Numbered from the stretch's first letter, positions 6,289 to 55,373 are shown. The stretch: 64,000 nt of DNA from Minisyncoccia bacterium (GCA_049297675.1 JBAQUS010000011.1:101184-165183), one strand, 5' to 3'. Notes: generated from the letters alone by a model not told the origin. Made by a program: numbers and translations.

Positions 6289-6894
6289 ATGCCAATTGAT
6301 ATAATATTTTCAGGAATAATATTTATCTTCTCGGTTATCATTCATGAAGTCTCTCATGGATTTATGGCGTATAAGCTGGGGGATAACACAGCCAAATTTG
6401 CTGGTAGGTTGACGCTAAATCCCATTCCACATATTGATCTTTTCGGTTCAATAATACTTCCCCTTTTTCTCGTTCTATCAGGGTCTTCAATGGTTGTTGG
6501 TTGGGCAAAGCCAGTACCATTCAATCCTTACAATCTTAAAAATCAAAGATGGGGAGAGGCAATGGTAGCCATTGCAGGACCACTTTCAAATATATTTCTC
6601 GCTGTTATTTTTGGAATCCTTATAAGGGTCGCTGTTTTTCCATCTCTTCTCAGTCCGTTCATATATATAGTATTGGTCAATCTTCTTCTAGCTACTTTTA
6701 ACCTAGTGCCAATTCCACCGCTCGATGGTTCCAAAATACTTTTCTCACTTTTTCCAAACAAGTTACATGAAGTCAGAGAATTTTTAGAGAGAAATGGGCT
6801 TTTTGTTTTGATTTTCTTTGTCTTTTTCCTTTGGCAATATGTTTATCCAATTGTTCTGGTTCAGTTTAATTTATTGACCGGTATGGCGATATAG
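6289..6894 (+). CDS. site-2 protease family zinc metalloprotease (peptidase M50)
   Basis: HEVSHGFMAYKLGD HExxH motif in a TM helix; polytopic membrane protein. Confidence 0.75.
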   Translation: MPIDIIFSGIIFIFSVIIHEVSHGFMAYKLGDNTAKFAGRLTLNPIPHIDLFGSIILPLFLVLSGSSMVVGWAKPVPFNPYNLKNQRWGEAMVAIAGPLSNIFLAVIFGILIRVAVFPSLLSPFIYIVLVNLLLATFNLVPIPPLDGSKILFSLFPNKLHEVREFLERNGLFVLIFFVFFLWQYVYPIVLVQFNLLTGMAI

Positions 6895-7026: not shown

Positions 7027-7440
7027 ATGTCAACGATAAATCAGCTTGTCAGAAGAAAGAGATCAAAGCCCGGAGTAAAGTCAAAAGCCGTGGCTCTTAC
7101 TCGTGGATTTAACAATCTAACAAACAGACCAGTTTTTTATAACTCACCTTTTAAGAGAGGTGTTTGCACAAAAGTGACGACAAAGACTCCTAAGAAACCA
7201 AACTCTGCTATACGAAAATACGCAAGAGTTCGCCTTACAAACGGTATGGAGGTTTCAGCATACATCCCAGGAATGGGACATGCCCTTCAAGAGCACTCCG
7301 TTGTTTTGCTACGAGGTGGAAAGGTAAAGGATGTCGGCTTGCGTTATACAATAGTGCGAGGCAAGCTCGATGCTACTGGAGTTGAGAAGAGAATGAAGGG
7401 AAGAAGTCAGTACGGAGCAAAGAGACCGAAAAGCAAATAA
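7027..7440 (+). CDS. rpsL: 30S ribosomal protein S12
   Basis: [53 protein letters not shown]. Confidence 0.95.
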
Positions 7441-7546: not shown

Positions 7547-8017
7547 ATGAGAAGAAAAGTTACAAACAGAAACATAGTCAAGAAAGACAAAAAATACGAC
7601 TCCGATAAAATCGGCAAATTTATCAACTACATAATGGAGAGGGGGCAGAAAGAAACTGCCAGAGGAATTGTTTACGATGCCTTGGAAGAAGTGAAAGAGA
7701 GAACAAAGGTTGAAGATGTTATGGAAGTTTTTGATACAGCTCTGAAAAACACAGGACCTTTGACAGAAGTTCGTTCTCGAAGAGTTGGTGGTGCAAACTA
7801 TCAGATTCCCAGAGAAGTTAGACCGGAAAGAAGGTCTTTCTTGTCCATGAAATGGATAATTGAGGCTGCTCGAGGTGGAAAAGGAAAGAGTATGGCTTTA
7901 AAACTAGCAGATGAAATAATTCTAGCAAGTAAAAACGAAGGTAAGGCTGTCAAGAAGAGAGAAGATACTCATAAAATGGCTGAAGCCAATAAGGCATTTG
8001 CCCATTTTGCATGGTAA
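7547..8017 (+). CDS. rpsG: 30S ribosomal protein S7
   Basis: full-length S7 similarity (RGQKETARGIVYDALEEV ... SRRVGGANYQIPREV). Confidence 0.95.
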   Translation: MRRKVTNRNIVKKDKKYDSDKIGKFINYIMERGQKETARGIVYDALEEVKERTKVEDVMEVFDTALKNTGPLTEVRSRRVGGANYQIPREVRPERRSFLSMKWIIEAARGGKGKSMALKLADEIILASKNEGKAVKKREDTHKMAEANKAFAHFAW

Positions 8018-8050
8018 AAAAGGGCCGAAAGGCCTTTTTTACCATGCAAA
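8003..8050. terminator. roughly 46-bp near-perfect palindrome that can form a long hairpin with flanking A/T runs (bidirectional terminator) after rpsG
   Basis: ttttgcatggtaaaaaagggccgaaaggccttttttaccatgcaaaa. Confidence 0.6.
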
Positions 8051-8244
8051 ATAAATTAAACAGCGCATGGTCGAGAGGGAAAATAGTAGAAAGCTATTTT
8101 CCCTCCGGGTGAGTTTTTCAAAAATCCTCACAAAAACAGAAAAGATCTCAACACCAGGAGAAGCAAAAATAAAAATTTAATAATTAAGAATAATTAAAAC
8201 AAGTTGAGCTTTCTTGTTTTTAATGTATTATTTAGTAATTAACA

Positions 8245-8793
8245 TTGAAGCACATGAAAACTGAATCTTTAGAAGCTTTTCCACCACCATATCTAAGAAG
8301 TCTGGATGAGATCTTGGGTTTTTCGGAAATACCGGAGGATAATTTTCAAGAATTGAAGTCCAGGTATATAGAATTGTATAAAAATAGTTTTGTTAAGTCA
8401 GTAAGAGACAATGAAGAAATAGATATGGAGTTATCGGAGGAAGTTTTGGATGAAGGGGGGACTGACGGGCTATTTAATGAACTTGAGGATTATTATAAAA
8501 AAGAAATTTGGGATAAATTAGTTGACGAACTAGTAAGAGTCGCTCCAGATTTTAAAGGTTTAAAGGTTCCCTCACCACTTAGACCTGAAGATTCAAAAAT
8601 TGAATTTGATGAGGATTTAGTTGACGCAGGCTTGGATGAAAAAAATAGAGATGTGCTGGACGAATATAGAAAATTACAAAAAAGTGCTCTTGAAATGTGT
8701 CTTAAGTTTTCAAAAAGAATTTCTAGGGAGGTGTTAAGAGAAAGTGTAAAAATGGCACGTATAGAGTTAGGATTAAGAAATATTGTTAACTAA
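8245..8793 (+). CDS. hypothetical acidic protein
   Basis: ORF track; no family recognised. Confidence 0.35.
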   Translation: MKHMKTESLEAFPPPYLRSLDEILGFSEIPEDNFQELKSRYIELYKNSFVKSVRDNEEIDMELSEEVLDEGGTDGLFNELEDYYKKEIWDKLVDELVRVAPDFKGLKVPSPLRPEDSKIEFDEDLVDAGLDEKNRDVLDEYRKLQKSALEMCLKFSKRISREVLRESVKMARIELGLRNIVN

Positions 8794-8913
8794 TATTAGA
8801 TTGTAATAGAAAGGAATTTTTTTCAACATAGGAATTTCATTTTATGTGCGAACCAGCGAGGGGAGTCTTCGGTTACTCGCTTACCAATTGTGTTCTCTAT
8901 TTTTCCTAATAAA

Positions 8914-8949
8914 ATAAAGTATCATATACGCCATGGCGTATATGATACT
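8914..8949. promoter_or_regulatory. 36-bp perfect palindrome centred on CCATGG, about 80 bp upstream of the Cas2/VapD-like gene
   Basis: aaagtatcatatacgccatggcgtatatgatacttt is identical to its reverse complement. Confidence 0.5.
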
Positions 8950-9027
8950 TTTATGGTATTCTCAGGGCAGGGGAATGTTGTTATAGATTTGTAATATACT
9001 GATGCATTAAATATATAGAAATCTCAA

Positions 9028-9417
9028 ATGAAAAGAAAATACTTAAGATACAAAGGAATACGAGTCAACGCTTTTGGTATTCCTGTGTCAGGATATGTTG
9101 ATAAAAGTAAAGGCAAAAAACCTATTAAAAAGAGGGATATTTATCACACCTCTTTTCCATCAGTTTTCAAAGAGAATTCTCCTAAAAATCTTATTGTTAT
9201 GTATGATATTCCACATGAATTAAAAAAGGAAAGAGACTGGTTTCGGCGACATCTTATTAAGTTTGGATACAAAATGATACAAAAAAGTGTTTGGGTGGGA
9301 CCATCCCCACTACCAAAAGAATTCCTCAAGTATTTAGAGGAAATAAAAATTGGAAATAGGTTAAAAACCCTTAAATTAGCCAAAACATACAATCCTACTA
9401 TATCAGCCATGGCGTAA
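9028..9417 (+). CDS. Cas2/VapD-fold endoribonuclease-like protein with a basic N-terminal extension of about 55 aa; solitary (no cas1, no CRISPR array)
   Basis: NLIVMYDIPHELKKERDWFRRHLIKFGYKMIQKSVWVG ... NRLKTLKL follows the Cas2 pattern (LVxYDV ... RRLRKxLxxYGxRVQxSVF ... RIYRL). Confidence 0.4.
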   Translation: MKRKYLRYKGIRVNAFGIPVSGYVDKSKGKKPIKKRDIYHTSFPSVFKENSPKNLIVMYDIPHELKKERDWFRRHLIKFGYKMIQKSVWVGPSPLPKEFLKYLEEIKIGNRLKTLKLAKTYNPTISAMA

Positions 9418-9481
9418 ATGATGATATCTAGGATTTCATGGTTATAAAATGGTCAATTAAATATTAGCTTTTTTTGGGTAA

Positions 9482-9534
9482 CTTGCATTTTTAGTGGGGG
9501 GGTAAAATAATGGTATTAAAATTAGCTTAAAATT
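9482..9534 (+). promoter_or_regulatory. conserved promoter/leader module, copy a (TTGCAt, 7 G's, TAAAAT ... ttaaaattATG)
   Basis: cttgcatttttagtgggggggtaaaataatggtattaaaattagcttaaaatt followed by ATG at 9535. Confidence 0.45.
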
Positions 9535-10203
9535 ATGAATGAAGGAAAACTTGAAAATAGTGATGACTTATCTATTGCCCCTCAAGAAGGATTAGATGGG
9601 CAAGTTGAAGATTATGATGCAGAAAAAAATTGGCAAGAATATATAAGAGATGGACGTCGAGAGCCGATGTCTATGGATCGTATATACTATATAATCCAAC
9701 GAGAAGATGGTCGGGCAGCCAGAATGGCGTTAAGTCACGCAGTTAATAGTGAGAGAGAATTTAAAAATGGAAAAGCGTGGTCTCCTCGTTCAGGAATAGA
9801 TTTTCCAATAGATGTGTCAGGACTTAATGAAGAGGAAAAGGATAAAATAGATCTTAAAGTGGGTAGTCTTGTCAAAGCATGGATTTTAGAACACGAACAA
9901 CAACAAGAATTAATGTTAGCAAGAGAAGAAGCTTTACGTGGTAATACCACAAAACTTATGAGTCTTCTCGTGGCATCTATGAGAAACGTAATAAACTCAG
10001 AGAGTCCGGAAACAGCCTTCAAATATATTTGTGGAATATGGTCCAGGAGTGATGGGGAAGATTATGAAGCAAATGCAACAGATTCTCCTCGTGAACTGAT
10101 GGATCATCCACTTCGTTATTTACCGAGCGATGTACAAAAAAAATTTGAGGATGAGTATAAGAGAGAATTTAGGAGCATGTTGGATGAGGAAAATGAAAGG
10201 TAA
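9535..10203 (+). CDS. hypothetical acidic protein
   Basis: ORF track; no family recognised. Confidence 0.35.
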   Translation: MNEGKLENSDDLSIAPQEGLDGQVEDYDAEKNWQEYIRDGRREPMSMDRIYYIIQREDGRAARMALSHAVNSEREFKNGKAWSPRSGIDFPIDVSGLNEEEKDKIDLKVGSLVKAWILEHEQQQELMLAREEALRGNTTKLMSLLVASMRNVINSESPETAFKYICGIWSRSDGEDYEANATDSPRELMDHPLRYLPSDVQKKFEDEYKREFRSMLDEENER

Positions 10204-10290
10204 AACTAATGGATAAGCAAGGTAAGCTATTGCTTTAATCAATCCTGAAAATGTTTAAGCTAGGGGAGTCCTCGCTTAAACTCGATTTAC

Positions 10291-10566
10291 TTAAAAAAGT
10301 TCGGAATGGTTGCCAATGTCGATTAATATCAAAACGAGCTCTCTTTTTCGGATTTGATAAACTAGAAGCAGGTCACCTTTAATGTGACACTCACGGAGGT
10401 TGTGCATACTTCCATGTAAAGAATGGTCTTTGTATTTTAGTGGGAGTGTTTTTCCTGAAGCTAGTATTTCGACAGCTGTTTCGATTTCGACCCTTTTGAT
10501 CTTCCCAGAGTGCATGACTTTCTTAAGGGATTTCTCAAATCTCTTAGTGAATATTTTTTTATACAT
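10291..10566 (-). CDS. yafQ: YafQ/RelE-family mRNA interferase toxin
   Basis: TLPLKYKDHSLHGSMHNLRECHIKGDLLLVYQIRKRELVLILIDIGNHSELF matches the YafQ pattern (LPxxYKDHxLxG ... REcHI ... DxLLIY ... GTHSxLF). Confidence 0.7.
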   Translation of the reverse strand: MYKKIFTKRFEKSLKKVMHSGKIKRVEIETAVEILASGKTLPLKYKDHSLHGSMHNLRECHIKGDLLLVYQIRKRELVLILIDIGNHSELF

Positions 10567-10583
10567 TTATTTTCCACTAAAAT

Positions 10584-10859
10584 TTAGACCAAAATATCAT
10601 CAAACATTTCTCGGGTAGAAGAATATCTTTTGCCGTGCTTTAAAGCCTCCACAGCCTCCCTTTCATATTTCTCAATTATTTTAGGATTGTATTTGTGAGT
10701 AAAACCAAATGGGCAAACATAAGTAAGATTATTAGGGTCGCTTTCTCTGGCCAAAAGAAACTTTATTCCGGAAGACAAATCAAGCCCCATATTCTTAAAC
10801 ATTTTTATAGCTTTTGTTTTTGTTGCCTTGTCTATTCTAATTTGTAGTGTTGTGTCCAT
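10584..10859 (-). CDS. dinJ: DinJ/RelB-family antitoxin, partner of the YafQ toxin
   Basis: MDTTLQIRIDKATKTKAIKMFKNMGLDLSSGIKFLLARES matches DinJ; the ORF-track start at 10943 is an upstream extension. Confidence 0.65.
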   Translation of the reverse strand: MDTTLQIRIDKATKTKAIKMFKNMGLDLSSGIKFLLARESDPNNLTYVCPFGFTHKYNPKIIEKYEREAVEALKHGKRYSSTREMFDDILV

Positions 10860-10936
10860 TTGGACAGTATAAAAAAATGTAATGATAATGTCAATACATA
10901 CTTTGTTGTAAGTGAAGGTGTACTTACCTACAATGA

Positions 10937-10998
10937 CTTGCAATTTTTACGGGGGGTAAAATTGAGGTATTAAAGTTAATACTTAAAAGTATAAAATT
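10937..10998 (+). promoter_or_regulatory. conserved promoter/leader module, copy b (TTGCAA, 6 G's, TAAAAT)
   Basis: cttgcaatttttacggggggtaaaattgaggtattaaagttaatacttaaaagtataaaatt followed by ATG. Confidence 0.45.
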
Positions 10999-11409
10999 AT
11001 GGAAACATACCACGATAGTTCTGGTCAAGAAATAAGTAGGGAATCTTTTATTGAATCACAGGAGAAAGAACATGATATTGAAGAAAGACTTTTGAGAGAG
11101 TCAGGGTGGTCACCGCTAGATGTTGTTCGTACTTTCTATCTATATGATAAATATGATGAAGCTAATCGTGACCAAGCGATAGGTGTAAAAAGGACTGTCG
11201 TTGTAATTGACACAACCATTCCGTCATACGGGTTTGATCATTGGGAAATTAATGGTGATGTTTTGCCACCAGATAATTCTGCAAAAAGTATATCAGTATA
11301 TGAATGGGTGAAGAACGGTGATGAGTATAAATGGGTTGAGATCGAAAGATATAAATGTAGTTATGATGGTGGTAAGCAGGGTGAATGGAAAAGTCTAGAT
11401 CTGACATAA
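10999..11409 (+). CDS. hypothetical protein
   Basis: ORF track. Confidence 0.35.
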   Translation: METYHDSSGQEISRESFIESQEKEHDIEERLLRESGWSPLDVVRTFYLYDKYDEANRDQAIGVKRTVVVIDTTIPSYGFDHWEINGDVLPPDNSAKSISVYEWVKNGDEYKWVEIERYKCSYDGGKQGEWKSLDLT

Positions 11410-11476
11410 ATACACTAAAAGAAATCCATATAGCTCAATAATTGACTATAAGTTTATCTTAAGATAAACTTATAGT

Positions 11477-11728
11477 ATGACTAAAATCAAGGATAAAATA
11501 ATAGGGCTTAAAGAGCTTAGGGAGAATACTGAAACTTATATTTCCCAAGTGGAAAAAGGTAAGTCTTTTGTGGTTATGCGAAAGTCAAAGCCAGTTTTTA
11601 CTATTTCTCCAGTAGACGAATGGGGAGATGAGGGTACCTGGGAAACAGTCGTAGACTTTAATGAGATAAAAAAAGGTGGTGTTCCAATTGAAGATGTGAT
11701 AAGTAGTTTGAAAAGATTAAATAGATAG
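11477..11728 (+). CDS. Phd/YefM-like antitoxin
   Basis: KIIGLKELRENTETYISQVEKGKSFVVMRKSKPVFTISPVDEW fits the Phd/YefM pattern; immediately precedes a RelE/ParE toxin gene. Confidence 0.5.
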   Translation: MTKIKDKIIGLKELRENTETYISQVEKGKSFVVMRKSKPVFTISPVDEWGDEGTWETVVDFNEIKKGGVPIEDVISSLKRLNR

Positions 11729-11735
11729 CTTATTT

Positions 11736-11969
11736 ATGAATAAAATAGATAAGTTTCTGAAAAAACTAATAACAGGCGACAGAGTTTTTATTTTAAAAGT
11801 TTTGAATCAAATATATTCTGGAAATTTCGAAAATTTACACGTAAAGAAGCTAAAAGGATTTAAAAATAAATACAGAGTTAGGGTGGGTAGAATAAGGATA
11901 ATATTTACTAAAGAAAGAGAAGGAATCAGAATTGATAAATTAGATTTTAGGAGCGATAATACATATTAA
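11736..11969 (+). CDS. RelE/ParE-family toxin
   Basis: KKLKGFKNKYRVRVGRIRIIFTKEREGIRIDKLDFRSDNTY fits the LxGxxxxYRxRVGxYRIIY ... I ... HR motif. Confidence 0.6.
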   Translation: MNKIDKFLKKLITGDRVFILKVLNQIYSGNFENLHVKKLKGFKNKYRVRVGRIRIIFTKEREGIRIDKLDFRSDNTY

Positions 11970-11977
11970 CTAATCTA

Positions 11978-12172
11978 ATGGAGACATTCTGGGACTTATT
12001 AAAAGATCCGGCACATTGGTGGTTTGAGTTATTTCTCATTTTTATTTTCGACGTAGTTGTCGGACTTATTGTTTGGCCGTTTGTCCAAAAGGCACTTATT
12101 CACCATAAATCCGATCACGAAAGACTAGAGGATTTAGAGAGGGAGGTGGAAAAACTAAGAAATAAAATGTAA
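11978..12172 (+). CDS. small membrane protein, hypothetical
   Basis: ORF track; one TM helix plus a charged tail. Confidence 0.3.
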   Translation: METFWDLLKDPAHWWFELFLIFIFDVVVGLIVWPFVQKALIHHKSDHERLEDLEREVEKLRNKM

Positions 12173-12174
12173 TT

Positions 12175-12435
12175 TTATCTGTATCCATCATGGTCATCAA
12201 TTGCCAGTAAGTACACTTCGTTTTTTAGTCCATATTGAAATATTATTCTGTCTTTACGATTAATCCAAAAGGCATATTTATCGCTCAGTCTACCGTGCAG
12301 TTTATGAACTTTCAGTCGCTTGTGGTTAAGAGGGTTTTCAAACAGTTTTATTTTTTCCAAAACCTCCTCATAGAATTTATTATCCAACTTTTTTAACTGT
12401 TTAATAAATGTGTGCGTATATATAAGACTAATCAT
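12175..12435 (-). CDS. RelE/ParE-superfamily toxin
   Basis: FIKQLKKLDNKFYEEVLEKIKLFENPLNHKRLKVHKLHGRLSDKYAFWINRKDRIIFQY ... VYLLAIDDH. Confidence 0.5.
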   Translation of the reverse strand: MISLIYTHTFIKQLKKLDNKFYEEVLEKIKLFENPLNHKRLKVHKLHGRLSDKYAFWINRKDRIIFQYGLKNEVYLLAIDDHDGYR

Positions 12436-12437
12436 AT

Positions 12438-12662
12438 TTAGTCTTTAAATTTTCTAACTATTTCTCTCAGGTCTCCACTAAAGACCCTGCCATTTTTTAT
12501 ATCCTTCTCTGCTTCAAAGATATTTTTTAGCAGTTCTTCTTCTGCATATAAATCTAATGCTTGTCTGACGGCATGGGCCTTATTAGCTGCCTTACCGCTT
12601 TTTACAAGGGAAGATATAAACCTTTCATTTTTTGGTGATATGGGTACTGATATTGTAGTCAT
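12438..12662 (-). CDS. ribbon-helix-helix (CopG/ParD-like) antitoxin, partner of the 12175..12435 toxin
   Basis: MTTISVPISPKNERFISSLVKSGKAANKAHAVRQALDLYAEEE; 3-nt gap to the toxin gene. Confidence 0.5.
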   Translation of the reverse strand: MTTISVPISPKNERFISSLVKSGKAANKAHAVRQALDLYAEEELLKNIFEAEKDIKNGRVFSGDLREIVRKFKD

Positions 12663-12810
12663 ATGATAATATATTAATTTATATGATATTATCATATATT
12701 AATAAGTAACTAAATGTCAAATTTACTTACTGATATTGCTCAAAATAGTCTTTTAGTATATAGTTTTCTCGTATCCCGAGAGGGTATTTTATTTACCACA
12801 ATAAATGAAT

Positions 12811-12923
12811 CCCGTTAGAGGCCGCGGTCGCTTACGGGTTAAGGAAATTAAGTAATTAATTAAAATTATCAATATTAATAAATATGGTATGGTAACGGAA
12901 GACCGCGACCTGCCTCTAACGGG
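12811..12923 (+). promoter_or_regulatory. long imperfect inverted repeat CCCGTTAGAGGCCGCGGTCG ... CGACCGCGACCTGCCTCTAACGGG whose right arm abuts the fusA ATG
   Basis: arms at about 12811-12830 and 12900-12923 around a 69-nt AT-rich loop; ATG at 12924. Confidence 0.5.
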
Positions 12924-15065
12924 ATGAACCGCGATTACACACTAGACAAAGTTAGAAACTTCGGAATCATTGCTCATATTGATGCTGGAAAAACAACCAC
13001 ATCCGAGCGTGTGCTTTTTTATACTGGAATGACTCACAAAATAGGTGAGGTGCACGAGGGGGAGACGGTGACTGACTGGATGGAGCAGGAAAGAGAAAGA
13101 GGTATTACAATTACAGCTGCGGCTATTACCTGTTTTTGGAATCCGACATACAGAGAGAAGGGTAGCAAACCTGAGTATCGTTTTAATATTATAGATACTC
13201 CAGGGCATATTGATTTTACTGCGGAAGTAAAGAGGTCACTTAGAGTACTCGACGGGGCGGTTGTGGTTTTCGACGGAGTGGCGGGAGTAGAACCACAGTC
13301 CGAGACAAACTGGAGATATGCGGATGATGGAAATGTTCCGAGAATCTGTTTTATAAATAAACTCGATAGAACAGGAGCATCATTTGAAAGAAGTTATGCT
13401 TCTATTTTGGATAGACTAACAAAAAACGCTGTCAGGGTTCAGATTCCAATCGGTCTTGAGGACAAGTTTGAAGGAGTTATTGACCTTATGAAAATGAAAG
13501 CTTTTTACTTTGAGGGAAACATGGGTATGCAAATAAAGGAAGCTGAAATTCCTGCTGAGCTTCTAGATGAGGCCAAAAAATATAGAGCAGAGCTTGTCGA
13601 AAAAGTTGTTGGAGAAGATGACAATCTAATGTCTGCGTATCTTGATGGTAAAGAGCCAACTACCGAGGAGCTCAAATTAACCCTGAGAAAAGCTACCCTT
13701 GCTGTAAAACTTGTACCAGTTTTTGCTGGATCAGCACTGAAAAACAAGGGAGTTCAGCTAGTTTTGGATGGTGTTGTTGATTACCTACCATCACCTTTGG
13801 ATATTCCTCCTGTACACGGAACTGATCCTAAAACAGGTGAAGATATTTTCCGAAACGCATCTGACTCAGAGCCATTCTCAGCACTTGCTTTCAAGCTTCA
13901 AAACGATCCTTTCGTTGGACAATTAACTTTCTTTAGAGTTTACTCTGGGACTTTAGAGGCAGGCACTTATGTCTACAATTCGACTACCGGAGAGAAAGAG
14001 CGTCTGGGAAGAATTGTTCGCCTTCAGGCGGATAAGCGTGAGGAAGTTAAAAAAGTTTTTGCGGGGGAGATCGCTGCGGCAGTAGGTCTGAAGTCAGCTA
14101 AAACGTCTCATACGCTATGTGATGAAAATAATCCGATTGTTCTTGATCCTATCAAGTTTGTTGATCCAGTGGTGTCTTTGCGTGTTGAGCCGAAGACCAA
14201 AGCTGATCAGGAAAAAATGGGTATGGCACTTAAAAAACTTTCTGACGAAGATCCAACTTTTGTTATTTCATCAAACTCTGAAACAGGCGAGAGTATTATT
14301 TCTGGAATGGGAGAGCTCCACCTTGAGATCATGGTTGATCGTATGAAGAGAGAATTTGGTGTAGAGGTAAACGTCGGCAAGCCACAAGTGGCATACAGAG
14401 AAACTATATTAGGTTCTGCAGAGGCTGAACACAAATACATAAAACAAACTGGTGGTAAGGGTCAATACGGACACGTTAAATTGACCATCAAACCACTTGA
14501 GAAAATAGAGGAAGGGGCAAAAATCCCTAAAAATGTTAAGAGATACGATGACTTCGAATTTATAGATTCAATCAAAGGTGGTGTTATTCCGCAGGAATTC
14601 ATTCCAGCGGTTGAAAAGGGGGTTCATGAAGCAATGGATCGTGGAATAGTGGCGGGTTACAAAATGGTAAATATTTCTTGCGAACTGACATTTGGATCGT
14701 ACCACGACGTGGACTCATCCGAAATTGCATACAAGATCGCTGCCTCGCAAGCTTTTCAGGAGGCTGCTAGGAGAGCTAGACCAGTAATACTTGAGCCAAT
14801 CATGAAAGTTGAGGCTGTTATGCCTGAGCAGTTCATGGGAGACATTACAGGTTCGCTTTCAGGAAAGAGAGGACAAATAGAAGGTATGGACGAGAGAGGA
14901 ATGCTTCGAGTAATCCACGCCAAAGTTCCACTTTCTGAAATGTTTGGATATACAACTGACATACGTTCAATGACCCAAGGCCGTGGCTCAGTCCAAATGG
15001 AATTTGATCACTATGAAGTAGTACCACCAAACGTGGAGAAAACAATCATTGAATCGAGGAAATAA
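12924..15065 (+). CDS. fusA: elongation factor G
   Basis: [29 protein letters not shown]-domain motifs and full-length EF-G similarity. Confidence 0.95.
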
Positions 15066-15960
15066 AATTATTTTTATTGAATTGAGGTATAATGAAAGAA
15101 TGTCAGAATCATTAGATAACCCAGTAGTTGTCGCAGAACCAACTATAGACAATACTGAAGAAAGATCTAGATTGCTAACTGAATTGGCTGAGAAGCTCGA
15201 GGGCTTTTTTTATGATCCAGATCAGAATGTTCCAGGTATAGAAAGAGAGAATTATGTTGATAATTTGTTAATAAATAGAAAAGTTATTGACTTTATTGAA
15301 CATAATCCAGGCAGTTTTGACTTGTTTTTTATTTATTTAAGTCGTCAAGTTTACGATAAGGATCAGCTGGAGTCATTGCTAAAAAACATTATTCTAAGAG
15401 AAGCTGAGAAAACCAAAAATCAAGTAGAATTGGTTGAAAGACTATGGGTTAGTCCACTGGCTTCAGTAGAAGAATATGAGTTGGGTGTTTACAAAGAGCA
15501 AATAGAGAGTCAGGTCAGAGATGCTGTCTTGGAATTAAAAAGAAAGGGTTATAGACCATTTGGATCTGGTTTCGGAGACCTAGTATCCGGTACACAAGCA
15601 ATACTTTTGAATAAGGAAGGAGTTGAAATAAGTTTGATTACAGAGAATTTAAGAGGTGAGAATGTGGAAATAGTTGAAGAAGAAGATAGAATACAAATAA
15701 TATTTAAGCCGACAGACTCAGAAACATCTATGGAGGAATTAAAAAAAGTTTGGAATAGAATAGTTTCAAAAATTCCATCAGTAAAGGATAATTCAAAATT
15801 AAGGTTGTCAGATAATGGTAGGCAAGGCAGTGAGTTTAGAGAAACTCAAAACAAAATCAAAAAAGGACAGAATGCTTGGTTAAGAAACGGATTAGCTTTT
15901 GTTGATGGAAAAGTAGTTGAAATGTCGTATGAGGATTTTCAGATTTTAATGAATAAATGA
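15049..15960 (+). CDS. hypothetical protein (probable start at the internal Met near 15100)
   Basis: ORF track; no family recognised. Confidence 0.35.
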
Positions 15961-15985: not shown

Positions 15986-16085
15986 ATCCCGTTAGAGTTT
16001 TGCTTGTTAACAATGTATTTTAAGTAATAAACAGGTTATCCCATAATATTTTTATATATGTTTGATTATTAAACTCTAACGGGAT
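15986..16085 (+). promoter_or_regulatory. 15-bp perfect inverted repeat ATCCCGTTAGAGTTT / AAACTCTAACGGGAT enclosing a 70-nt AT-rich loop, ending 11 nt before the ATG at 16097
   Basis: arms at about 15986-16000 and 16071-16085. Confidence 0.5.
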
Positions 16086-16096
16086 AAAATTAGTCA

Positions 16097-17362
16097 ATGG
16101 TTACTACTACTGACTTAAAAAAACCTATACCCTCGCCTTTTGATATTTTGACTTCTCAAACTGAGAAAGTTGAAAAAAGTGAAACAAGTGATATTTATAA
16201 TATTCCTATAAAGAAGATATTTGACAGTGTTCCGAAGCCGACTGAACTAGAGCCTTTGATGGGAGCTGATGGTTCGCAAAAAATTCCAATAAACAAAAAA
16301 ACATCACCGAAAAAAAGTTTCTTTGTTCCACAAATTGCATTAGACTTTGTAGAGAGTCTAATAAGAAATAATAGACCGCTCAAATCTCTGAGGTTTGATT
16401 TGGAGGAGTCAAATTCAATCGAAGAAGCTTTGGAACACATTGATGATTCAAAACTTCTATTAATTTCTGAAAAACAAGATTTACTCAAGATTCTCGGTTT
16501 TGAAGATAAGAGTCCTGAGGCAGAAGTAATTTTGGACGAGGAGCTTGCAAAAGCAAGGAAAAATTATATTTCTTTACAAGGTCCTTACATAAGAAAAAAT
16601 CAGATTCACAAAGAGAGCTACGCAAAGATCATGGCTGATTTTGGAGTAGAAAAAGAGATGCCTAAGAGAGATGTACCGAAAGAAGTTATGGAAGCAAGAT
16701 TGGAATACGAAGATTTGAAATTGAGGAAGAAAGGTCTTCTAGGTGAAAACAGTACAGAGTTTATTGTCACGGAACAAGAATTTTTTTCCGACGAGTTGTT
16801 CAAGATCGTCAAACCAGAAGCTTCTCCATACATTAGTAAGCTTTCAAACATATGGAATCATTCGGAGAATGATAGTTCAATTGATTTTTTACTACTAGAC
16901 ATTGATTTTTTGAAAAAAACAGAGTCACAAGAGGCAGTCTTTGAGGGGTTGAGAACTGAAATAAATCTTACAACCACTGAAGTTTCACCTATTCTAGCGA
17001 ATAAAGTTGAAAACGATACGATACTTGCAAAAAGAGCTGAAAATGCTGAAAACCTGCCTGTGGAGAACTTCTCTGTACAAAAGGAGGTCTTTGAGCAAGA
17101 ATCGGCTAGTCCGAAAGAAGAGGTATTCCCCTCAGAATACGAGGGTAACCAGATAAAGGTAATAAAAGAGGGTATAGATGACACTTTTATTATTAGGGTA
17201 ACATTCAATGATAAGGACATTGCTCTAGGTGAAATCGTAAAAAATAACCTAAAAATAAAGTTAAAACCGGAGTTTAAGGCAGGATGGTTTTATGTAAAAA
17301 CACCAGAAGAGAGAGCTTTTAAGGAGAAAATATTGCCATTTCTTAAAACTCTCAAATCTTAA
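16097..17362 (+). CDS. hypothetical acidic protein
   Basis: ORF track. Confidence 0.35.
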   Translation: MVTTTDLKKPIPSPFDILTSQTEKVEKSETSDIYNIPIKKIFDSVPKPTELEPLMGADGSQKIPINKKTSPKKSFFVPQIALDFVESLIRNNRPLKSLRFDLEESNSIEEALEHIDDSKLLLISEKQDLLKILGFEDKSPEAEVILDEELAKARKNYISLQGPYIRKNQIHKESYAKIMADFGVEKEMPKRDVPKEVMEARLEYEDLKLRKKGLLGENSTEFIVTEQEFFSDELFKIVKPEASPYISKLSNIWNHSENDSSIDFLLLDIDFLKKTESQEAVFEGLRTEINLTTTEVSPILANKVENDTILAKRAENAENLPVENFSVQKEVFEQESASPKEEVFPSEYEGNQIKVIKEGIDDTFIIRVTFNDKDIALGEIVKNNLKIKLKPEFKAGWFYVKTPEERAFKEKILPFLKTLKS

Positions 17363-17365
17363 TAT

Positions 17366-17653
17366 TTGATGAATTTATCAAAAGATATAATAAATGAATG
17401 GGACCTTGGTACTTTGTCCAAGGAAAGAAAGACTGACGTAGTCAGTCGGATTAGCCGTGTATTGTTCCAGGCACTTATGGTTAGATCACTTGATATACTA
17501 TCTGATTCAGAGCAGTCAGAACTTGATGACTTGATGAGTCAGGATTCAACAACGTCTGAGGATGTTCTTATTTTTTTAAAATCTAAAATTCCAACATTTA
17601 GTGTTCTGGTGAAGGAAGAGAGAGAAAGTTTAAAAAGAAGTATGCAGATTTAG
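17366..17653 (+). CDS. hypothetical protein
   Basis: ORF track. Confidence 0.3.
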   Translation: MMNLSKDIINEWDLGTLSKERKTDVVSRISRVLFQALMVRSLDILSDSEQSELDDLMSQDSTTSEDVLIFLKSKIPTFSVLVKEERESLKRSMQI

Positions 17654-17954: not shown

Positions 17955-19157
<1,203 letters not shown>

Positions 19158-19375: not shown

Positions 19376-19430
19376 CTTGCAATTTTTACGGGGGGGGTAA
19401 AATTAAGTGAATAATAATTAACTTAAAATT
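19376..19430 (+). promoter_or_regulatory. conserved promoter/leader module, copy c (TTGCAA, 8 G's, TAAAAT)
   Basis: cttgcaatttttacggggggggtaaaattaagtgaataataattaacttaaaatt followed by ATG. Confidence 0.45.
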
Positions 19431-19844
19431 ATGACAGAAGAAGGATACAAACCAAGTGAAGAAGAGATAGAATTAGCAAAATCTCATATGAGATCAGCGG
19501 AAGGTGTCATGTCTACAAGTAGAGAGTTACAATTTAATAATTTAGCCGAGATGGGCGTTAAGGGTTATTTGTATTTTAGTCATACTCTTGTTGGAGATCA
19601 CGTTGAATATGAATTTGAGGGTGAACTAAATGGTCATAGGGTTTTATTTAAAACTGAAGGTAAACAATTGTTTATTGATGGTGTAGAGGTAGATAAAAAT
19701 AGAGCCATGAGATTTAAGGAGAAATATTGTCCACTAGCAATAGATAAAAGTGCCGAAAATTCATATAATGATTATGCTAGGGTAGAAAGAGAAAAACCAA
19801 TTGAATTAATAAGAGCTGAAGAATTTTTGGACGAAATTCTTTAA
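19431..19844 (+). CDS. hypothetical protein
   Basis: ORF track. Confidence 0.35.
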   Translation: MTEEGYKPSEEEIELAKSHMRSAEGVMSTSRELQFNNLAEMGVKGYLYFSHTLVGDHVEYEFEGELNGHRVLFKTEGKQLFIDGVEVDKNRAMRFKEKYCPLAIDKSAENSYNDYARVEREKPIELIRAEEFLDEIL

Positions 19845-19865
19845 ATTTTAATATATAAATTATTA

Positions 19866-19935
19866 CCTACCACGGAGGCGTTGCCTCCGTGGTACCGCCA
19901 CAACCCCGAGTTAGTTTCTAGTTCGGTGGTTTTTT
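19866..19935 (+). terminator. GC-rich hairpin ccacggaggcGTTgcctccgtgg followed by a second stem and T-run
   Basis: the same hairpin core recurs at about 49835. Confidence 0.4.
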
Positions 19936-19941
19936 GTTTGA

Positions 19942-20184
19942 ATGAAAATGGGAAATATGATAATATGGCCTAATATGAAAAAAACTATTTCATTTAAGAT
20001 ATCAAAGGAGGGAAAACATTATACGGCTTCAGCTGTGGGTTTTTTCATTGTCACAGAGGGGAAAAGTTTAGACGAGCTTTCAAAAAATATAAGAGAAGCA
20101 ACGGAACTTTACTTTGAAGATCATAATAAAAAAAATAAAAATAATTTTAATTCTATTTCGCTAAATTTACCACTATACGTTTAA
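19942..20184 (+). CDS. hicB: HicB-like antitoxin
   Basis: ISFKISKEGKHYTASAVGFFIVTEGKSLDELSKNIREATELYFED fits the HicB RNase-H-fold antitoxin pattern; followed 3 nt later by hicA. Confidence 0.5.
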   Translation: MKMGNMIIWPNMKKTISFKISKEGKHYTASAVGFFIVTEGKSLDELSKNIREATELYFEDHNKKNKNNFNSISLNLPLYV

Positions 20185-20187
20185 TAT

Positions 20188-20427
20188 ATGCCTAGACTGA
20201 GGGATATTTCTGGTAAGCAAATGGTCAGAATCTTTCAAACCCTTGGTTTTGTTGTTTTAAGTCAAAAAGGTAGTCATATCAAGATGTCTAGAGTTCAAGG
20301 TGGAAAAGAGCAGACTTTGGTTATTCCAAACCATACTTCAATCTCAAAAGGAACACTTAAAACAATTTATATTCAGGCAGGTAACTACATTCCTGAAAAT
20401 CAGCTCAAAAAACTTTTTTATACATAG
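20188..20427 (+). CDS. hicA: HicA mRNA interferase toxin
   Basis: ISGKQMVRIFQTLGFVVLSQKGSHIKMSR ... LVIPNHTSISKGTLKTIYIQAG matches HicA (GKELIKLLEKxGFxxVRxKGSHxxxxH ... VPxHxxLxxGTLxSILKQAG). Confidence 0.65.
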   Translation: MPRLRDISGKQMVRIFQTLGFVVLSQKGSHIKMSRVQGGKEQTLVIPNHTSISKGTLKTIYIQAGNYIPENQLKKLFYT

Positions 20428-20551: not shown

Positions 20552-21022
20552 ATGACTGCCAAGGAAAGCCCAAAAAAACCTGTAGCCAAAAAAACTGCTA
20601 CAAAAAAACCCGCTAATGCAGGTGGGTCTGTTGCTAAACCTTCCGTACCAAAGTCTACAACGAAAGTGGCTAAGACAGTTTCTACTCCAGTCAAGTCTTC
20701 ACCTAAGACCGAGGCTATTTCTAAACTTCGTATACGGGTCAGAGCATACGAGTACAAGATTTTGGATGTTTCAGTAAAGCAGATAATAGATACAGCTCTT
20801 CGTTATGATGCTAAAGTCGAAGGACCTATACCTCTCCCTACTGAGATAAAAAAATACACTGTAAACAGATCATCTTTCGTTTTTAAAAATGCTAGAGAGC
20901 AGTTTGAAATGAGAGTACACAAGAGAGTTATAGACATTCTCAATCCTAGCCCGAAAATAATGGAGGCGTTGACAAACATGTCATTACCAAGTGGAGTTAA
21001 CATTGATGTGAAGATTATTTAG
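20552..21022 (+). CDS. rpsJ: 30S ribosomal protein S10 with an N-terminal K/A/P-rich (histone H1-like) extension of about 55 aa
   Basis: the C-terminal 100 aa (LRIRVRAYEYKILDVSV ... GPIPLPTEIKKYTVNRS) is S10; the N-terminus is KKPVAKKTATKKPANAGG-type low-complexity sequence. Confidence 0.9.
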   Translation: MTAKESPKKPVAKKTATKKPANAGGSVAKPSVPKSTTKVAKTVSTPVKSSPKTEAISKLRIRVRAYEYKILDVSVKQIIDTALRYDAKVEGPIPLPTEIKKYTVNRSSFVFKNAREQFEMRVHKRVIDILNPSPKIMEALTNMSLPSGVNIDVKII

Positions 21023-24346: not shown

Positions 24347-24382
24347 TTGACATTTCATATCCAAAGTATATACTTTGGATAT
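24347..24382. promoter_or_regulatory. 34-bp perfect palindrome overlapping the start of the RelB/DinJ-like antitoxin gene (putative autoregulatory operator)
   Basis: tttcatatccaaagtatatactttggatatgaaa. Confidence 0.5.
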
Positions 24383-24656
24383 GAAAACGATGATAAATAT
24401 AAAAACAGATGTTGAGATAAAAAATCAGGCCAAGAAGGTGGCTAAAGAGCTTGGTATTCCACTCGGGACTGTGCTTAACGCATATTTAAGGGAGTTTATT
24501 CAAACTAAGACGGCTCACTTTTCATTGGTACCAAGAATGACAAAAACCTTGGAGCTACTTTTAGGGTCTGTTGAAAAAGATGTGAGGAAGAGAAAAAATC
24601 TTTCCCAAACTTTTTCTTCTGATAAAGAAGCCATTAGTTATCTAAATAATCTCTAA
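24375..24656 (+). CDS. RelB/DinJ-family antitoxin
   Basis: MINIKTDVEIKNQAKKVAKELGIPLGTVLNAYLREFIQTK matches DinJ/RelB. Confidence 0.6.
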   Translation: MDMKTMINIKTDVEIKNQAKKVAKELGIPLGTVLNAYLREFIQTKTAHFSLVPRMTKTLELLLGSVEKDVRKRKNLSQTFSSDKEAISYLNNL

Positions 24657-24661
24657 GTCTT

Positions 24662-24922
24662 ATGAGAGTCGTTTTTCATAAGAATTTTGAAAAGAAATAC
24701 AAAAGACTAAGGTCCTCCGAAAAAGATAGGTTTAAAAAAATTTTAAATACTTTTATTATTGATCCGTTTTATCCAACTTTGAACAACCACGTATTATCTG
24801 GTAAATACGGAGGTTTTAGAAGTATAAATATCGGTGGCGATTTAAGGGCTATTTACAAAATGTTAGATAATGATATGTACCTCTTTGTGACCATTGATTC
24901 ACACAGCAATTTGTATGAATAG
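24662..24922 (+). CDS. RelE/YafQ-family toxin
   Basis: FEKKYKRLRSSEKDRFKKILNTFIIDPFYPTLNNHVLSGKYGGFRSINIGGDLRAIYKM ... DSHSNLY. Confidence 0.6.
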   Translation: MRVVFHKNFEKKYKRLRSSEKDRFKKILNTFIIDPFYPTLNNHVLSGKYGGFRSINIGGDLRAIYKMLDNDMYLFVTIDSHSNLYE

Positions 24923-25833: not shown

Positions 25834-26199
25834 AACCTTAAACAAGTTCTTTGCTTTCTTTGATCCTTCCGTTTTTTCCAGGCCCCTGCTTTACCGCGGG
25901 GGTCCTTCTTTATATACTTTTCTTTTATTAATGTTTTCTATACAATAATCTTGGATATTCGATCGGGTGAGCGATCACGGTTTCTCACTATCGCTATCTT
26001 GTAAAAGGGATCAATGAGGATTCACCGAGCAATATTTTTTCTTAGCTTTGTGAATGAGAATTGCCTTTTATAAAAAAAACAAAATAAGTCGGTGTGATAG
26101 GTTATCGAGCGTATCAGTTATGACACATAAGGCTCGGAATGAAGTACAGAGGGTGACTGGTGTTGCTCTCGGTGATAATAGACGACCTATCATACATTG

Positions 26200-26332: not shown

Positions 26333-26373
26333 CATTTGTTTCTCCTCCATCTTTTAGGTGGGGGAGTTTCTTT

Positions 26374-26733: not shown

Positions 26734-26776
26734 TCATCATAGTTTTATTATCTGTGTTGTAATTTTTTATGCTATA

Positions 26777-55368: not shown

Positions 55369-55373
55369 CATCT

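Follow-up and report, generated by a model that had tools for sequence, protein, structure and literature searches.

The window analysed here, a stretch of 64 kb, belongs to the MAG of a tiny uncultured bacterium, a Minisyncoccia (Parcubacteria) of a lineage close to Zambryskibacteria. In this genome rpsG and fusA are separated by 4906 bp, versus about 50 nt in most bacteria. The gap contains two recurrent residents of the slot, a 64-aa membrane gene and a Cas2-fold gene, and the added cargo consists of two ORFans, one hypothetical gene and three toxin-antitoxin (TA) operons. The features from rpsL to fusA are as follows.

7027-7440: rpsL, left of rpsG in the split str operon
7547-8017, plus strand: rpsG (ribosomal protein S7), left flank (Pfam Ribosomal_S7, E = 4.6e-54)
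8004-8052, plus: intrinsic-terminator-like hairpin overlapping the rpsG stop codon
8254-8793, plus: acidic hypothetical protein, 179 aa (NCBI call), or 182 aa from a TTG at 8245
8916-8951: perfect 36-bp palindrome, core GCCATGGC, upstream of the Cas2-like gene (z = -6.4)
9028-9417, plus: solitary Cas2-fold/PaaX_M-like protein, 129 aa
9400-9422: second copy of the palindrome, overlapping the codons of the conserved C-terminus (ISAMA and stop) of the Cas2-like protein
9482-9534, plus: promoter and leader cassette with a G7 tract (CTTGCA...G7...TAAAAT...ATG)
9535-10203, plus: ORFan acidic protein, 222 aa
10291-10566, minus: YafQ-family toxin, 91 aa (Pfam YafQ_toxin, 2.5e-26)
10584-10859, minus: RelB/DinJ-family antitoxin, 91 aa (NCBIfam RelB_DinJ, 3.4e-9, below cutoff)
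10894-10866, minus: promoter-like site of the DinJ-YafQ operon (TTGACA-17-TATACT, 11/12)
10999-11409, plus: ORFan protein, 136 aa, behind a G6 promoter cassette (10937-10998)
11445-11476: perfect 32-bp palindrome abutting the Phd start codon, candidate operator
11477-11728, plus: Phd/YefM-like antitoxin, 83 aa (Pfam, 8.9e-6; NCBIfam phd_fam, 2.3e-4)
11736-11969, plus: RelE-fold toxin, 77 aa (PHROG RelE-like, 2.8e-4)
11978-12172, plus: conserved 64-aa single-pass membrane protein, resident upstream of fusA
12175-12435, minus: RelE/YafQ-like toxin, 86 aa, absent from the NCBI record's calls (NCBIfam RelE_StbE, 5.3e-5)
12438-12662, minus: ParD-like ribbon-helix-helix (RHH) antitoxin, 74 aa (NCBIfam ParD, 4.7e-5, below cutoff)
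12661-12720, minus: predicted ParD-RelE promoter (TTGACA 12720-12715, TATGAT 12696-12691, spacing 18)
12736-12795, plus: predicted fusA promoter and leader hairpin, then a T-run (TTGCTC-17-TATAGT)
12809-12925, plus: genome-specific hairpin of about 113 nt ending at the fusA ATG, arms ATCCCGTTAGAGGC / GCCTCTAACGGGAT
12924-15065, plus: fusA (EF-G), right flank (Pfam, all EF-G domains)

The order and coordinates of rpsL-rpsG, gap and fusA agree with the initial annotation, and the 4.9-kb gap is real. Both acidic hypothetical proteins that it listed in the gap (8254-8793 and 9535-10203) are present, and its gene order stands, but its list omitted the 136-aa ORF (10999-11409) and the 64-aa membrane ORF (11978-12172).

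rpsG and fusA are among the most conserved gene neighbours in biology. In about 65 non-CPR genomes retrieved with the same S7 query the gap between them measures 4-354 nt, with a single exception of 1526 nt, and a more distant Parcubacteria MAG has 19 nt there. The split had been read as an event of this genome, which is not borne out, as 11 relatives are interrupted at the same junction by 0.8-5.6 kb, with different cargo in each. Two relatives have an empty (L169, 290 nt) or near-empty (L168, one 65-aa gene) site with flanks otherwise kept. Most of the relatives compared are MAGs and short contigs, and gaps in their assemblies could account for some of the absences.

The hairpin after rpsG, a palindromic terminator first given as about 46 bp, is 49 bp long with perfect 20-bp arms (8004-8023 and 8033-8052) and a 9-nt loop; it folds at -31.2 kcal/mol (z = -6.5) and recurs in L086 at 6729-6776. 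A conserved spacer of about 85 nt follows it up to 8137, and the backbone 7958-8137 is common to L085, L086, L105, L168 and L169 (blastn). On the other side of the gap, the predicted fusA promoter has its boxes at 12736-12741 (TTGCTC) and 12759-12764 (TATAGT), and its leader hairpin, a terminator-like site, lies at 12763-12785. Promoter and leader are kept in 10 relatives, in which the stem letters vary and the pairing is maintained. The hairpin of about 113 nt before fusA folds at -43.5 kcal/mol (z = -5.1); it was found neither in L001, L002, L003 and L005 by alignment nor in the fusA-upstream sequence of L084-L086, L089, L090, L102, L105 and L160. A single operator palindrome had been proposed at 12696-12780, but the fold of this interval is no better than that of shuffles (z = -1.1) and the element was mis-located: the interval holds three separate things, namely ParD operator repeats with a minus-strand promoter, the fusA promoter and the leader hairpin. 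A simple promoter scan returned 49 sites versus 44.7 in shuffled sequence, i.e. no excess. Judged from these signals, rpsL-rpsG and fusA appear to be separate transcription units, with the str operon decoupled.

We assigned the six TA proteins to three type II operons of the RelE/ParE superfamily. YafQ-DinJ is strongly supported: the toxin scores 92 bits against a Pfam cutoff of 30, and it matches H. pylori HP0892 in the PDB at 1.3e-18, with the alignment reaching the C-terminal HSELF. The HMM evidence for Phd-RelE and for ParD-RelE/YafQ-like is weaker and is joined by fold and profile comparisons. Both Phd/YefM scores fall just below the cutoffs; the AlphaFold2 model of its 77-aa partner (pLDDT 75) has archaeal RelE as best Foldseek matches (3bpq, 1.00; 1wmi, 0.99). 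In L084 the antitoxin is 82% identical, the palindrome before it has a homologue with changed arms, and 185 nt of the toxin gene have been deleted while operator and Phd are retained. The 86-aa toxin scores 98.9% (E = 2e-17) in hhalign against the YafQ alignment and has homologues in L105 and L089; in L105 it is paired with a ParD homologue 51% identical to ours. All three pairs thus survive HMM, profile or fold tests, which upholds their earlier TA classification, although four of the six proteins score below curated HMM cutoffs. Each operon carries a predicted sigma-70-like promoter of its own, which in two cases is overlapped or adjoined by inverted repeats; at ParD-RelE, ATATGATA inverted repeats span the -10 box and the operator repeats cover 12661-12698. 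Among 39 small ORFs of the window, all TA-family matches lie within slots of the ribosomal-protein/elongation-factor cluster.

The solitary Cas2/VapD-like gene noted earlier in the gap is confirmed by HMMs (Pfam PaaX_M, 5.8e-13; CRISPR_Cas2, 5.1e-7) and by its AlphaFold2 model (pLDDT 75.7), whose best Foldseek matches are Cas2 with probability up to 0.99. Its family, confined to Parcubacteria-type genomes, comprises more than 1500 homologues; identity with the 120 best hits is 56-74%, in most cases over 63%, and the protein is as well conserved as ribosomal protein S7. Members are often located between rpsG and fusA, as in L089, L090, L102 and L105, and L086 carries the gene in the fusA-tuf slot; in most of 80 loci examined it is flanked by other housekeeping genes. 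No CRISPR array was found anywhere in the window. The two palindromes around the gene are the only copies in the 64 kb. Among 82 homologous loci, 60 have a palindrome centred on CCATGG ahead of the gene; where the start codon was refined, the centre in nearly every case lies about 35 nt before it. The consensus around the gene is approximately ATATACGCCATGGCGTATAT. The pair bracketing the gene most likely represents its own regulatory sites.

The hypothetical genes gave few matches. For the 179/182-aa acidic protein there was none in Pfam, NCBIfam, PHROGs or PADLOC and no tblastn match in any relative. Family searches with the 222-aa ORFan found nothing, and a search of 1.84 billion representatives yielded a single distant homologue (27% identity, E = 3e-5); the 136-aa ORFan matched only itself among 5.8 billion proteins. 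The promoter and leader cassette before the 222-aa ORFan (G7) is common to 10937-10998 (G6) and 19376-19430 (G8).

Backbone and cargo alternate along the gap. Blocks 7958-8137, 11978-12164 and 12731-12799 are common to relatives, and blocks 8138-11977 and 12165-12730 are not. The 64-aa gene is 69-84% identical in L084, L085, L086, L167 and L168 (tblastn) and is always the last plus-strand gene before fusA in these five. The ParD-RelE operon forms an exact 560-bp insertion between the stop codon of this gene and the fusA -35 box, and its homologues in L105 are located after fusA. An IS200/IS605-like transposase adjoins the ParD-RelE homologue there, which hints that transposition may also move modules. 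As to the synteny expected of an island, most of the content is indeed absent from close relatives with kept flanks (L169, L168), but the 64-aa and Cas2-like genes recur.

Further slots lie downstream in the same cluster:

15100-15960, plus: genome-specific hypothetical protein, 286-303 aa, fusA-tuf slot
16097-17653, plus: lineage-specific pair, a fast-evolving 421-aa protein and a 95-aa DUF5663-like protein
17955-19157: tuf, downstream of fusA
19376-20427, plus: third slot, tuf-rpsJ, with the G8 cassette, a 137-aa ORF, an 80-aa ORF in the HicB position, and HicA

The initial annotation described a second insertion between fusA and tuf. This applies to the 303-aa ORF, which has no family match and no homologue in any relative searched. 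The rest is an ancient pair, kept in every relative examined: it recurs in the fusA-tuf slot of L084-L086 and L167-L169 (24-51% identity for the large protein, 54-71% for the small one), and the small partner carries the precomputed tag PF18908. Likewise, the str unit had been called broken twice; the breaks are real, but the count is too low, for tuf-rpsJ (HicA_toxin, 5.6e-14), rplB-rpsS (a second DinJ-YafQ pair and a diversity-generating retroelement, DGR) and rplE-rpsN (a DksA/TraR-like gene) are interrupted too.

A check of composition agreed with the gap being unusual: it is the most AT-rich 4.9-kb stretch in the window (33.4% GC, against 38.2%), and its tetranucleotide distance lies at the 96.6th percentile. 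Together with the absence of most genes from relatives and a content of ORFans and TA modules typical of islands, this would suit one horizontally acquired genomic island, a mobile element of about 5 kb that entered this genome at the rpsG-fusA junction. However, the other slots are equally low in GC, so low GC marks accessory DNA generally here, and neither an integrase or transposase nor a tRNA or flanking direct repeats were found at the gap. Moreover, the conserved 64-aa gene interrupts it with backbone, different modules are common to different relatives and in different slots, and 11 relatives already show the split. A single acquisition is therefore improbable, and what survives of the proposed 5-kb accessory island is its accessory, TA-rich and AT-rich content.

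RelE/YafQ toxins act on ribosomes, and this family knowledge, the S7-like conservation of the Cas2-like protein and the fixed positions of the 64-aa gene, the Cas2-like gene and the DUF5663 pair among translation genes could point to an ancestral functional extension of the str operon, whose genes serve translation and are held by selection and not by chance. We regard this as unlikely. The closest relatives lack counterparts of the two ORFans, of the 182-aa hypothetical gene and of two of the three TA operons, and L169 has an empty slot. In most loci examined the Cas2-like gene sits beside other housekeeping genes, and two TA operons are encoded on the opposite strand behind predicted promoters of their own. 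An assembly or binning chimera joining ribosomal genes to unrelated accessory DNA is a thought raised by the MAG source and by the frequent occurrence of the Cas2-like family on very short contigs, which suggests that assemblies break nearby. It is very hard to credit: the NCBI assembly and contigs from two independent Logan runs agree on the junction from rpsG to the first ORF of the gap, the backbone blocks between the cargo follow the order known from relatives, and the 11 relatives split at the same place come from different studies.

We consider it likely that the gap is a long-lived variable slot, a patchwork from several events, in a lineage with a decoupled str operon. The operon would be cut into separately transcribed units, rpsL-rpsG ending at the strong hairpin terminator and fusA being transcribed from a separate conserved promoter with a short leader made of a hairpin and a U-run. 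The stretch between them would then need no co-transcription and would be an open slot, in which small self-sufficient genes accumulate and turn over. Cargo is probably exchanged when DNA has been taken up and recombines homologously within the strongly conserved genes on either side; just upstream there is a ComEC-type competence gene. TA modules may persist as selfish passengers because loss of a pair would release the toxin, and persistence would be favoured further between essential genes, where large deletions are lethal.

All parts of the locus belong to known kinds. In type II TA systems of this kind the toxin, a ribosome-dependent mRNA endonuclease, is kept inactive by the bound antitoxin, which also acts as repressor of the operon, and the predicted antitoxins would do the same here. 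Like the DinJ-YafQ, Phd/YefM-RelE and ParD-RelE/ParE systems, our predicted pairs are small and adjacent with the antitoxin first, the YafQ protein exceeds the curated threshold and keeps HSELF, the toxins have the RelE fold, and predicted promoters are accompanied by palindromes in two operons. Unlike them, four of the six proteins stay under the cutoffs, the 77-aa toxin is unusually short, and the site inside the str operon is unusual. The Cas2-like protein shares with Cas2, VapD and the PaaX middle domain a Cas2-type ferredoxin fold (residues 53-129), whose first strand bears an invariant YD motif, and HMM matches exceeding the cutoffs. It differs from Cas2 in having no cas1 gene or CRISPR array, from PaaX in lacking the winged-helix and C-terminal domains, and from all three in its 50-residue basic N-terminal extension, its large Parcubacteria-type family and the conserved palindromes at its 5' and 3' ends.

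Vibrio superintegron arrays consist of small cassettes with or without promoters, including many TA pairs and ORFans, and the TA pairs are thought to stabilise chromosomal integron arrays. The slot resembles them as an array of small cassettes with TA pairs and ORFans, but no IntI integrase or attC-type repeats at module borders were found in the window, and its palindromes are tied to individual genes instead of accompanying every module. Chromosomal hotspots of gene gain and loss between conserved core genes are a known concept of comparative genomics. As in these, the slot is fixed between conserved genes, AT-rich and filled with many ORFans and TA modules, its cargo varies by relative, some sites are empty, and no dedicated integrase is needed. 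Unlike them, several adjoining junctions of the same ribosomal cluster behave alike, and the flanks, rpsG and fusA, belong to an operon cited as an extreme case of gene order conserved from bacteria to archaea (PMC8189683). In portions of two reports on Patescibacteria, ribosomal protein genes, tuf and rpsL are over-represented in predicted islands (PMC12455944), and TA families occur in predicted islands of Ca. Nealsonbacteria, a Parcubacteria genome (bioRxiv 10.1101/2022.04.20.488981); variable slots inside ribosomal operons are not described in those portions. The enrichment of ribosomal genes in predicted islands, as given there (PMC12455944), might partly reflect such slots.

The str operon serves as the textbook example of a gene order that was fixed before the split of bacteria and archaea, and CPR phylogenomics and binning rely on ribosomal gene clusters found on single contigs. 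The gene order of the operon has also been called an extreme case of conservation (PMC8189683). In the present genome, rpsG and fusA are separated by 4906 bp holding eleven ORFs, as determined by ORF listing and Pfam scans:

7027-7440, rpsL
7547-8017, rpsG
8245-8793, plus strand, ORF 1, acidic protein of 182 aa without family
9028-9417, plus strand, ORF 2, 129 aa, PaaX_M/Cas2
9535-10203, plus strand, ORF 3, 222 aa, without family
10291-10566, minus strand, ORF 4, 91 aa, YafQ
10584-10859, minus strand, ORF 5, 91 aa, RelB/DinJ
10999-11409, plus strand, ORF 6, 136 aa, without family
11477-11728, plus strand, ORF 7, 83 aa, Phd/YefM-like
11736-11969, plus strand, ORF 8, 77 aa, RelE-like
11978-12172, plus strand, ORF 9, membrane protein of 64 aa
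12175-12435, minus strand, ORF 10, 86 aa, RelE/YafQ-like
12438-12662, minus strand, ORF 11, 74 aa, ParD-like
12924-15065, fusA
17955-19157, tuf

The gene order and toxin-antitoxin (TA) content agree with the initial annotation, which had overlooked ORFs 6 and 9. A single-pass membrane protein of 64–65 aa is encoded directly upstream of fusA across the clade (relatives' loci L084-L086, L167 and L168), with the conserved pattern ME.F..L.KDPAHW.FE...WPFV.KAL.HHKSDHERLEDLE. The junction between rpsG and the first ORF is identical in NCBI assembly GCA_049296815.1, whose contig JBAQTD010000011.1 is annotated as from a Minisyncoccia bacterium, and in two independent run assemblies. The hairpin that follows rpsG, with 20-bp arms that pair perfectly around a loop of 9 nt, folds far better than shuffled sequence. 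The hypothetical proteins gave no matches in PHROGs or PADLOC apart from a weak RelE-like match and the Cas2 matches, and both ORFans (222 and 136 aa) are essentially unique in protein searches. At the gathering threshold, Rfam reported only tmRNA and one tRNA in the whole window, and thus no known leader or riboswitch that would account for the hairpins. ARAGORN called a tRNA-Ile with anticodon TAT at 55295-55369, an uncommon bacterial means of reading AUA. All components of the region belong to known kinds.

We then compared the junction among other genomes. When a set with one genome for each species was searched with S7, about 65 non-CPR genomes were obtained, and among them rpsG and fusA lie 4–354 nt apart with a single exception of 1526 nt; the distance is 19 nt in a more distant Parcubacteria MAG. 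Every relative with EF-G identity above about 70% is split at this junction, by 0.8 to 5.6 kb, and the cargo is unrelated between genomes. The nearest neighbour in GTDB (L001, EF-G 91%) carries 5.6 kb there, in which no homologue of any protein encoded in the 4.9-kb gap was detectable, and elsewhere the junction encodes a surface protein of 1079 aa, a DUF8128 protein of 913 aa or a handful of small ORFs. The synteny comparison suggested in the initial annotation also turned up one site without any gene (L169, GW2011_GWF2_39_8b, 290 nt) and one with a single 65-aa gene only (L168, C7867-006). Most of the content is therefore accessory, as had been claimed for a 5-kb island, but the split itself proved to be old and lineage-wide.

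When the gaps of the relatives were compared with the window by blastn, backbone and cargo separated as follows:

7958-8137, backbone, end of rpsG with terminator and spacer
8138-11977, cargo, all except the ParD-RelE operon
11978-12164, backbone, 64-aa gene
12165-12730, cargo, ParD-RelE operon
12731-12799, backbone, fusA promoter (TTGCTC-17-TATAGT), short hairpin and T-run

The fusA promoter and leader are present in ten relatives, whose stem sequences vary yet remain paired; MAFFT with RNAalifold misaligned the short hairpins and returned zero structure, and the pairing is taken from direct reading of the sequences. The ParD-RelE operon is an exact 560-bp insertion that precisely fills the interval from the 64-aa gene's stop codon to the fusA -35 box; in L168 and L086 these two features lie 1–7 nt apart. 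Homologues of the pair in the relative L105 (8477-9488) lie after fusA, with 51% and 43% identity, and adjoin a 143-aa IS200/IS605-type transposase, a possible vehicle for moving TA modules. In L084 (580-650, against 11735-11977 of the window) a 185-nt deletion removes the RelE toxin gene and leaves the antitoxin as an orphan, with operator and Phd at 83% nucleotide identity to the window. L084 is a natural case of TA decay to an orphan antitoxin.

The initial annotation had read the region as one mobile island. Among 4.9-kb stretches of the window it does have the lowest GC (33.4% versus 38.2%), and its tetranucleotide distance lies at the 96.6th percentile. The other slots, i.e., junctions of the ribosomal protein and elongation factor cluster that hold other genes, have a GC of 32.8–33.7%, and low GC marks accessory DNA generally here, not a single foreign block. 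Among the ORFs between 8018 and 20427, no integrase, recombinase or transposase was matched in Pfam, NCBIfam or PHROG, and the only tRNA and tmRNA of the window are more than 38 kb away. An island bounded by repeats was rejected because the repeat search found no flanking direct repeat pair around the insert. With neither integrase, tRNA nor bounding repeats, and with parts that have separate histories, the mobile-island reading was not sustained. We consider it probable, from the sequence comparison, that the str operon is decoupled and that its rpsG-fusA junction is a slot of variable content throughout the lineage, with several independent small insertions, three credible TA operons among them, around resident genes. 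The original observation thus stands, and its interpretation does so in part, as a lineage-wide mosaic slot in place of one island. The individual parts are none of them new in kind.

ORF 4 is unambiguously a predicted YafQ-family toxin. It scores 92.2 bits with PF15738, whose cutoff is 30 (E = 2.5e-26), and matches H. pylori HP0892 (4nrn) with E = 1.3e-18, and the alignment to HP0892 conserves KYKDH, RECH, DLLLVYQI and the C-terminal HSELF; the conserved His/Asp/His and C-terminal H..LF residues are those we take to be catalytic in YafQ-type RNases. The DinJ-like gene (ORF 5) lies 17 nt upstream on the same strand and its product scores 36.8 bits with NCBIfam RelB_DinJ (E = 3.4e-9), under the cutoff of 45.65. 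The Phd-like ORF 7 reaches 25.8 bits in Pfam (cutoff 29.8, E = 8.9e-6) and 20.4 bits in NCBIfam (cutoff 20.8). Because the weak TA proteins yielded next to nothing when searched singly against the PDB, profile-profile comparison and predicted fold were used for them. The 77-aa toxin (ORF 8) matches a RelE-like phage family in PHROG (2.8e-4), and its single-sequence AlphaFold2 model (pLDDT 75) has archaeal RelE as the top three Foldseek matches (probability 0.99–1.00, E = 6e-3 to 4e-2); this partner of Phd is predicted to adopt the RelE fold. The 86-aa toxin (ORF 10), whose gene is uncalled in the NCBI record, matches NCBIfam RelE_StbE below cutoff (5.3e-5). Together with two homologues it aligns to the YafQ alignment in hhalign with 98.9% probability (E = 2.1e-17), and it is assigned as a predicted member of the RelE/ParE superfamily. 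Its 74-aa partner (ORF 11) matches NCBIfam ParD at 4.7e-5 (23.3 bits, cutoff 46.2) and nothing in Pfam or PDB searches, and the pairing is kept in L105. The three TA operons are credible, and the outcome that would have refuted the initial annotation on this point, a lack of HMM support for the TA assignments, did not occur.

Each of the three TA operons has a promoter-like site, which agrees with the consensus at 11 of 12 positions for DinJ-YafQ and ParD-RelE and at 9 of 12 for Phd. Candidate operator inverted repeats occur at the expected place in two of the three: a perfect 32-bp palindrome (11445-11476) that abuts the Phd start codon, overlaps the promoter-like site and has a counterpart with changed arms in L084, and ATATGATA repeats spanning the -10 box of the ParD operon. 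When all 39 small ORFs of the window were considered, every TA-family match fell inside the slots, and the other 44 kb yielded no match.

Other junctions of the cluster were also occupied. The insertion annotated between fusA and tuf holds up for the 303-aa ORF only, the one genome-specific gene there; a 421-aa gene and its 95-aa partner, tagged DUF5663, have same-position homologues in all six relatives examined. Further downstream we found:

19376-20427, slot between tuf and rpsJ, 137-aa ORF behind a G8 promoter cassette, then an 80-aa ORF, then HicA
24375-24922, slot between rplB and rpsS, second DinJ/RelB-YafQ pair
24982-27769, between rplB and rpsS, diversity-generating retroelement (DGR)
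24982-25833, DGR target gene
26374-26610, minus strand, bAvd-like gene of the DGR
26777-27769, reverse transcriptase of the DGR

The HicA toxin is matched at E = 5.6e-14, and the 80-aa ORF upstream of it occupies the antitoxin position without a family match. Both L085 and L086 carry the second DinJ-YafQ pair in this slot at 75–88%, but L084 lacks it; the pair has apparently resided in the S10 operon for a long time. In the DGR, the variable repeat (25654-25786) and template repeat (26200-26332) differ at 18 of 133 nt, 17 of these at template adenines, and the GC of the target gene reaches about 0.55 in 500-nt windows. The slot between rplE and rpsN, in the spc region, contains a non-ribosomal gene for a DksA/TraR C4 zinc-finger protein of 144 aa (32351-32785). 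The rpsJ ORF (20552-21022) encodes 156 aa, about 55 residues of which form an N-terminal extension rich in Lys, Ala and Pro, and the called rpsJ genes have 152–154 aa in L085 and L086 and 101 aa in L084.

Two kinds of repeated element lie directly before start codons in the window. A promoter cassette of about 60 nt (CTTGCA...G6-8...TAAAAT...TTAAAATTATG), with its G-tract between -35-like and -10-like boxes, is common to the ORFs starting at 9535, 10999 and 19431:

9482-9534, cassette copy with G7, tract at 9495-9502
10937-10998, cassette copy with G6, tract at 10951-10956
19376-19430, cassette copy with G8, tract at 19390-19397

DNA similarity ends at the start codon and the proteins align without similarity, on which grounds the three genes were rejected as paralogues. 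None of the 168 other fetched loci contains the cassette, and its variable G-tract could make the promoter phase-variable. The second element is a 113-nt hairpin (arms ATCCCGTTAGAGGC / GCCTCTAACGGGAT, z = -5.1) that ends exactly at the fusA ATG. Start-codon-proximal hairpins of this type are built on CCCGTTAGAG(G)...(C)CTCTAACGGG, with the motif CCCGTTAGAGG...CCTCTAACGGG:

12809-12925, hairpin before fusA
15986-16085, second copy, before the 421-aa gene
60944-60975, 3' half, before the ORF at 60976
L085 6253-6262, 3' half, before the homologue of the 421-aa gene
L156 3121-3170, compact version, before a gene

The fusA copy is absent from all relatives, and a conserved fusA leader was rejected for this reason; such hairpins may represent either a mobile palindromic element of small size or a signal in the 5' UTR. 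A 34-nt unit also forms two short tandem arrays (47000-47065 and 47333-47398), about 330 nt apart and flanking small ORFs.

These results indicate that in this Parcubacteria lineage the junctions rpsG-fusA-tuf-rpsJ and rplB-rpsS can all hold kilobases of strain-specific genes, and that str gene order persists without predicted co-transcription. Variable slots within ribosomal operons were not described in the literature searched, the coverage of which was incomplete. According to a study of 125 Patescibacteria genomes, ribosomal proteins, tuf and rpsL are enriched in the predicted islands (PMC12455944), and for a Nealsonbacteria genome TA families are reported inside predicted islands (bioRxiv 10.1101/2022.04.20.488981). 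In the present lineage, ribosomal genes may be picked up by island predictors for trivial reasons. The slots are also predictable spots for finding accessory genes in these reduced genomes, and TA gain and decay form a clean natural series in them, from the exact 560-bp insertion to the toxin deletion that leaves an orphan antitoxin.

The solitary Cas2-like gene (ORF 2) is a different case from the cargo. It has more than 1500 homologues, the best 120 of which are 56–74% identical and annotated from Paceibacterota, Nomurabacteria and similar groups, and its protein is as conserved as S7. An alignment-based model gives a Cas2 ferredoxin fold over residues 53–129, with an invariant YD (the conserved Asp) in the first strand. 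Of 80 metagenomic loci, four have the gene between rpsG and fusA, one has it immediately ahead of fusA, two have it beside other ribosomal genes and the remainder have it amid varied housekeeping genes; in L086 it sits in the slot between fusA and tuf. A CCATGG-centred palindrome (consensus approximately CCCCATATACGCCATGGCGTATATGGGG) is found upstream in 60 of 82 loci, its centre about 35 nt before the start codon in nearly all start-refined loci, but in the window 94 nt before it. A second copy is found at the 3' end of the gene or slightly beyond and often encodes the conserved C-terminus ISAMA. Similarity between upstream and 3' copies is 0.80 within a locus and 0.70 (sd 0.011) between different loci; the two copies co-vary within a genome. 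We take ORF 2 to be a conserved gene with candidate regulatory sites of its own, not island cargo.

Given these palindromes and the recurrence of the gene beside translation genes, one may speculate, at long odds, that the protein is a CRISPR-independent, core-like nucleic-acid-binding factor of Parcubacteria that recognises the conserved 20–28-bp palindrome (ATATACGCCATGGCGTATAT) bracketing its own gene. If true, the ribosomal-operon slots might be maintained acceptor sites and not passive gaps. A palindrome-bracketed Cas2-like family was not described in the literature searched, which was likewise incompletely covered, and this family with its palindromes is the most promising lead and the only one that could repay experiments. 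Such a factor would be of a new, autoregulated kind with ties to the translation cluster, or else a hairpin-targeting element that has been domesticated and resembles REP/RAYT. Compared with a CRISPR-Cas adaptation module, the gene has no cas1 or other cas genes beside it and no CRISPR array in the 64-kb window, whereas its product possesses the Cas2 fold and the conserved Asp.
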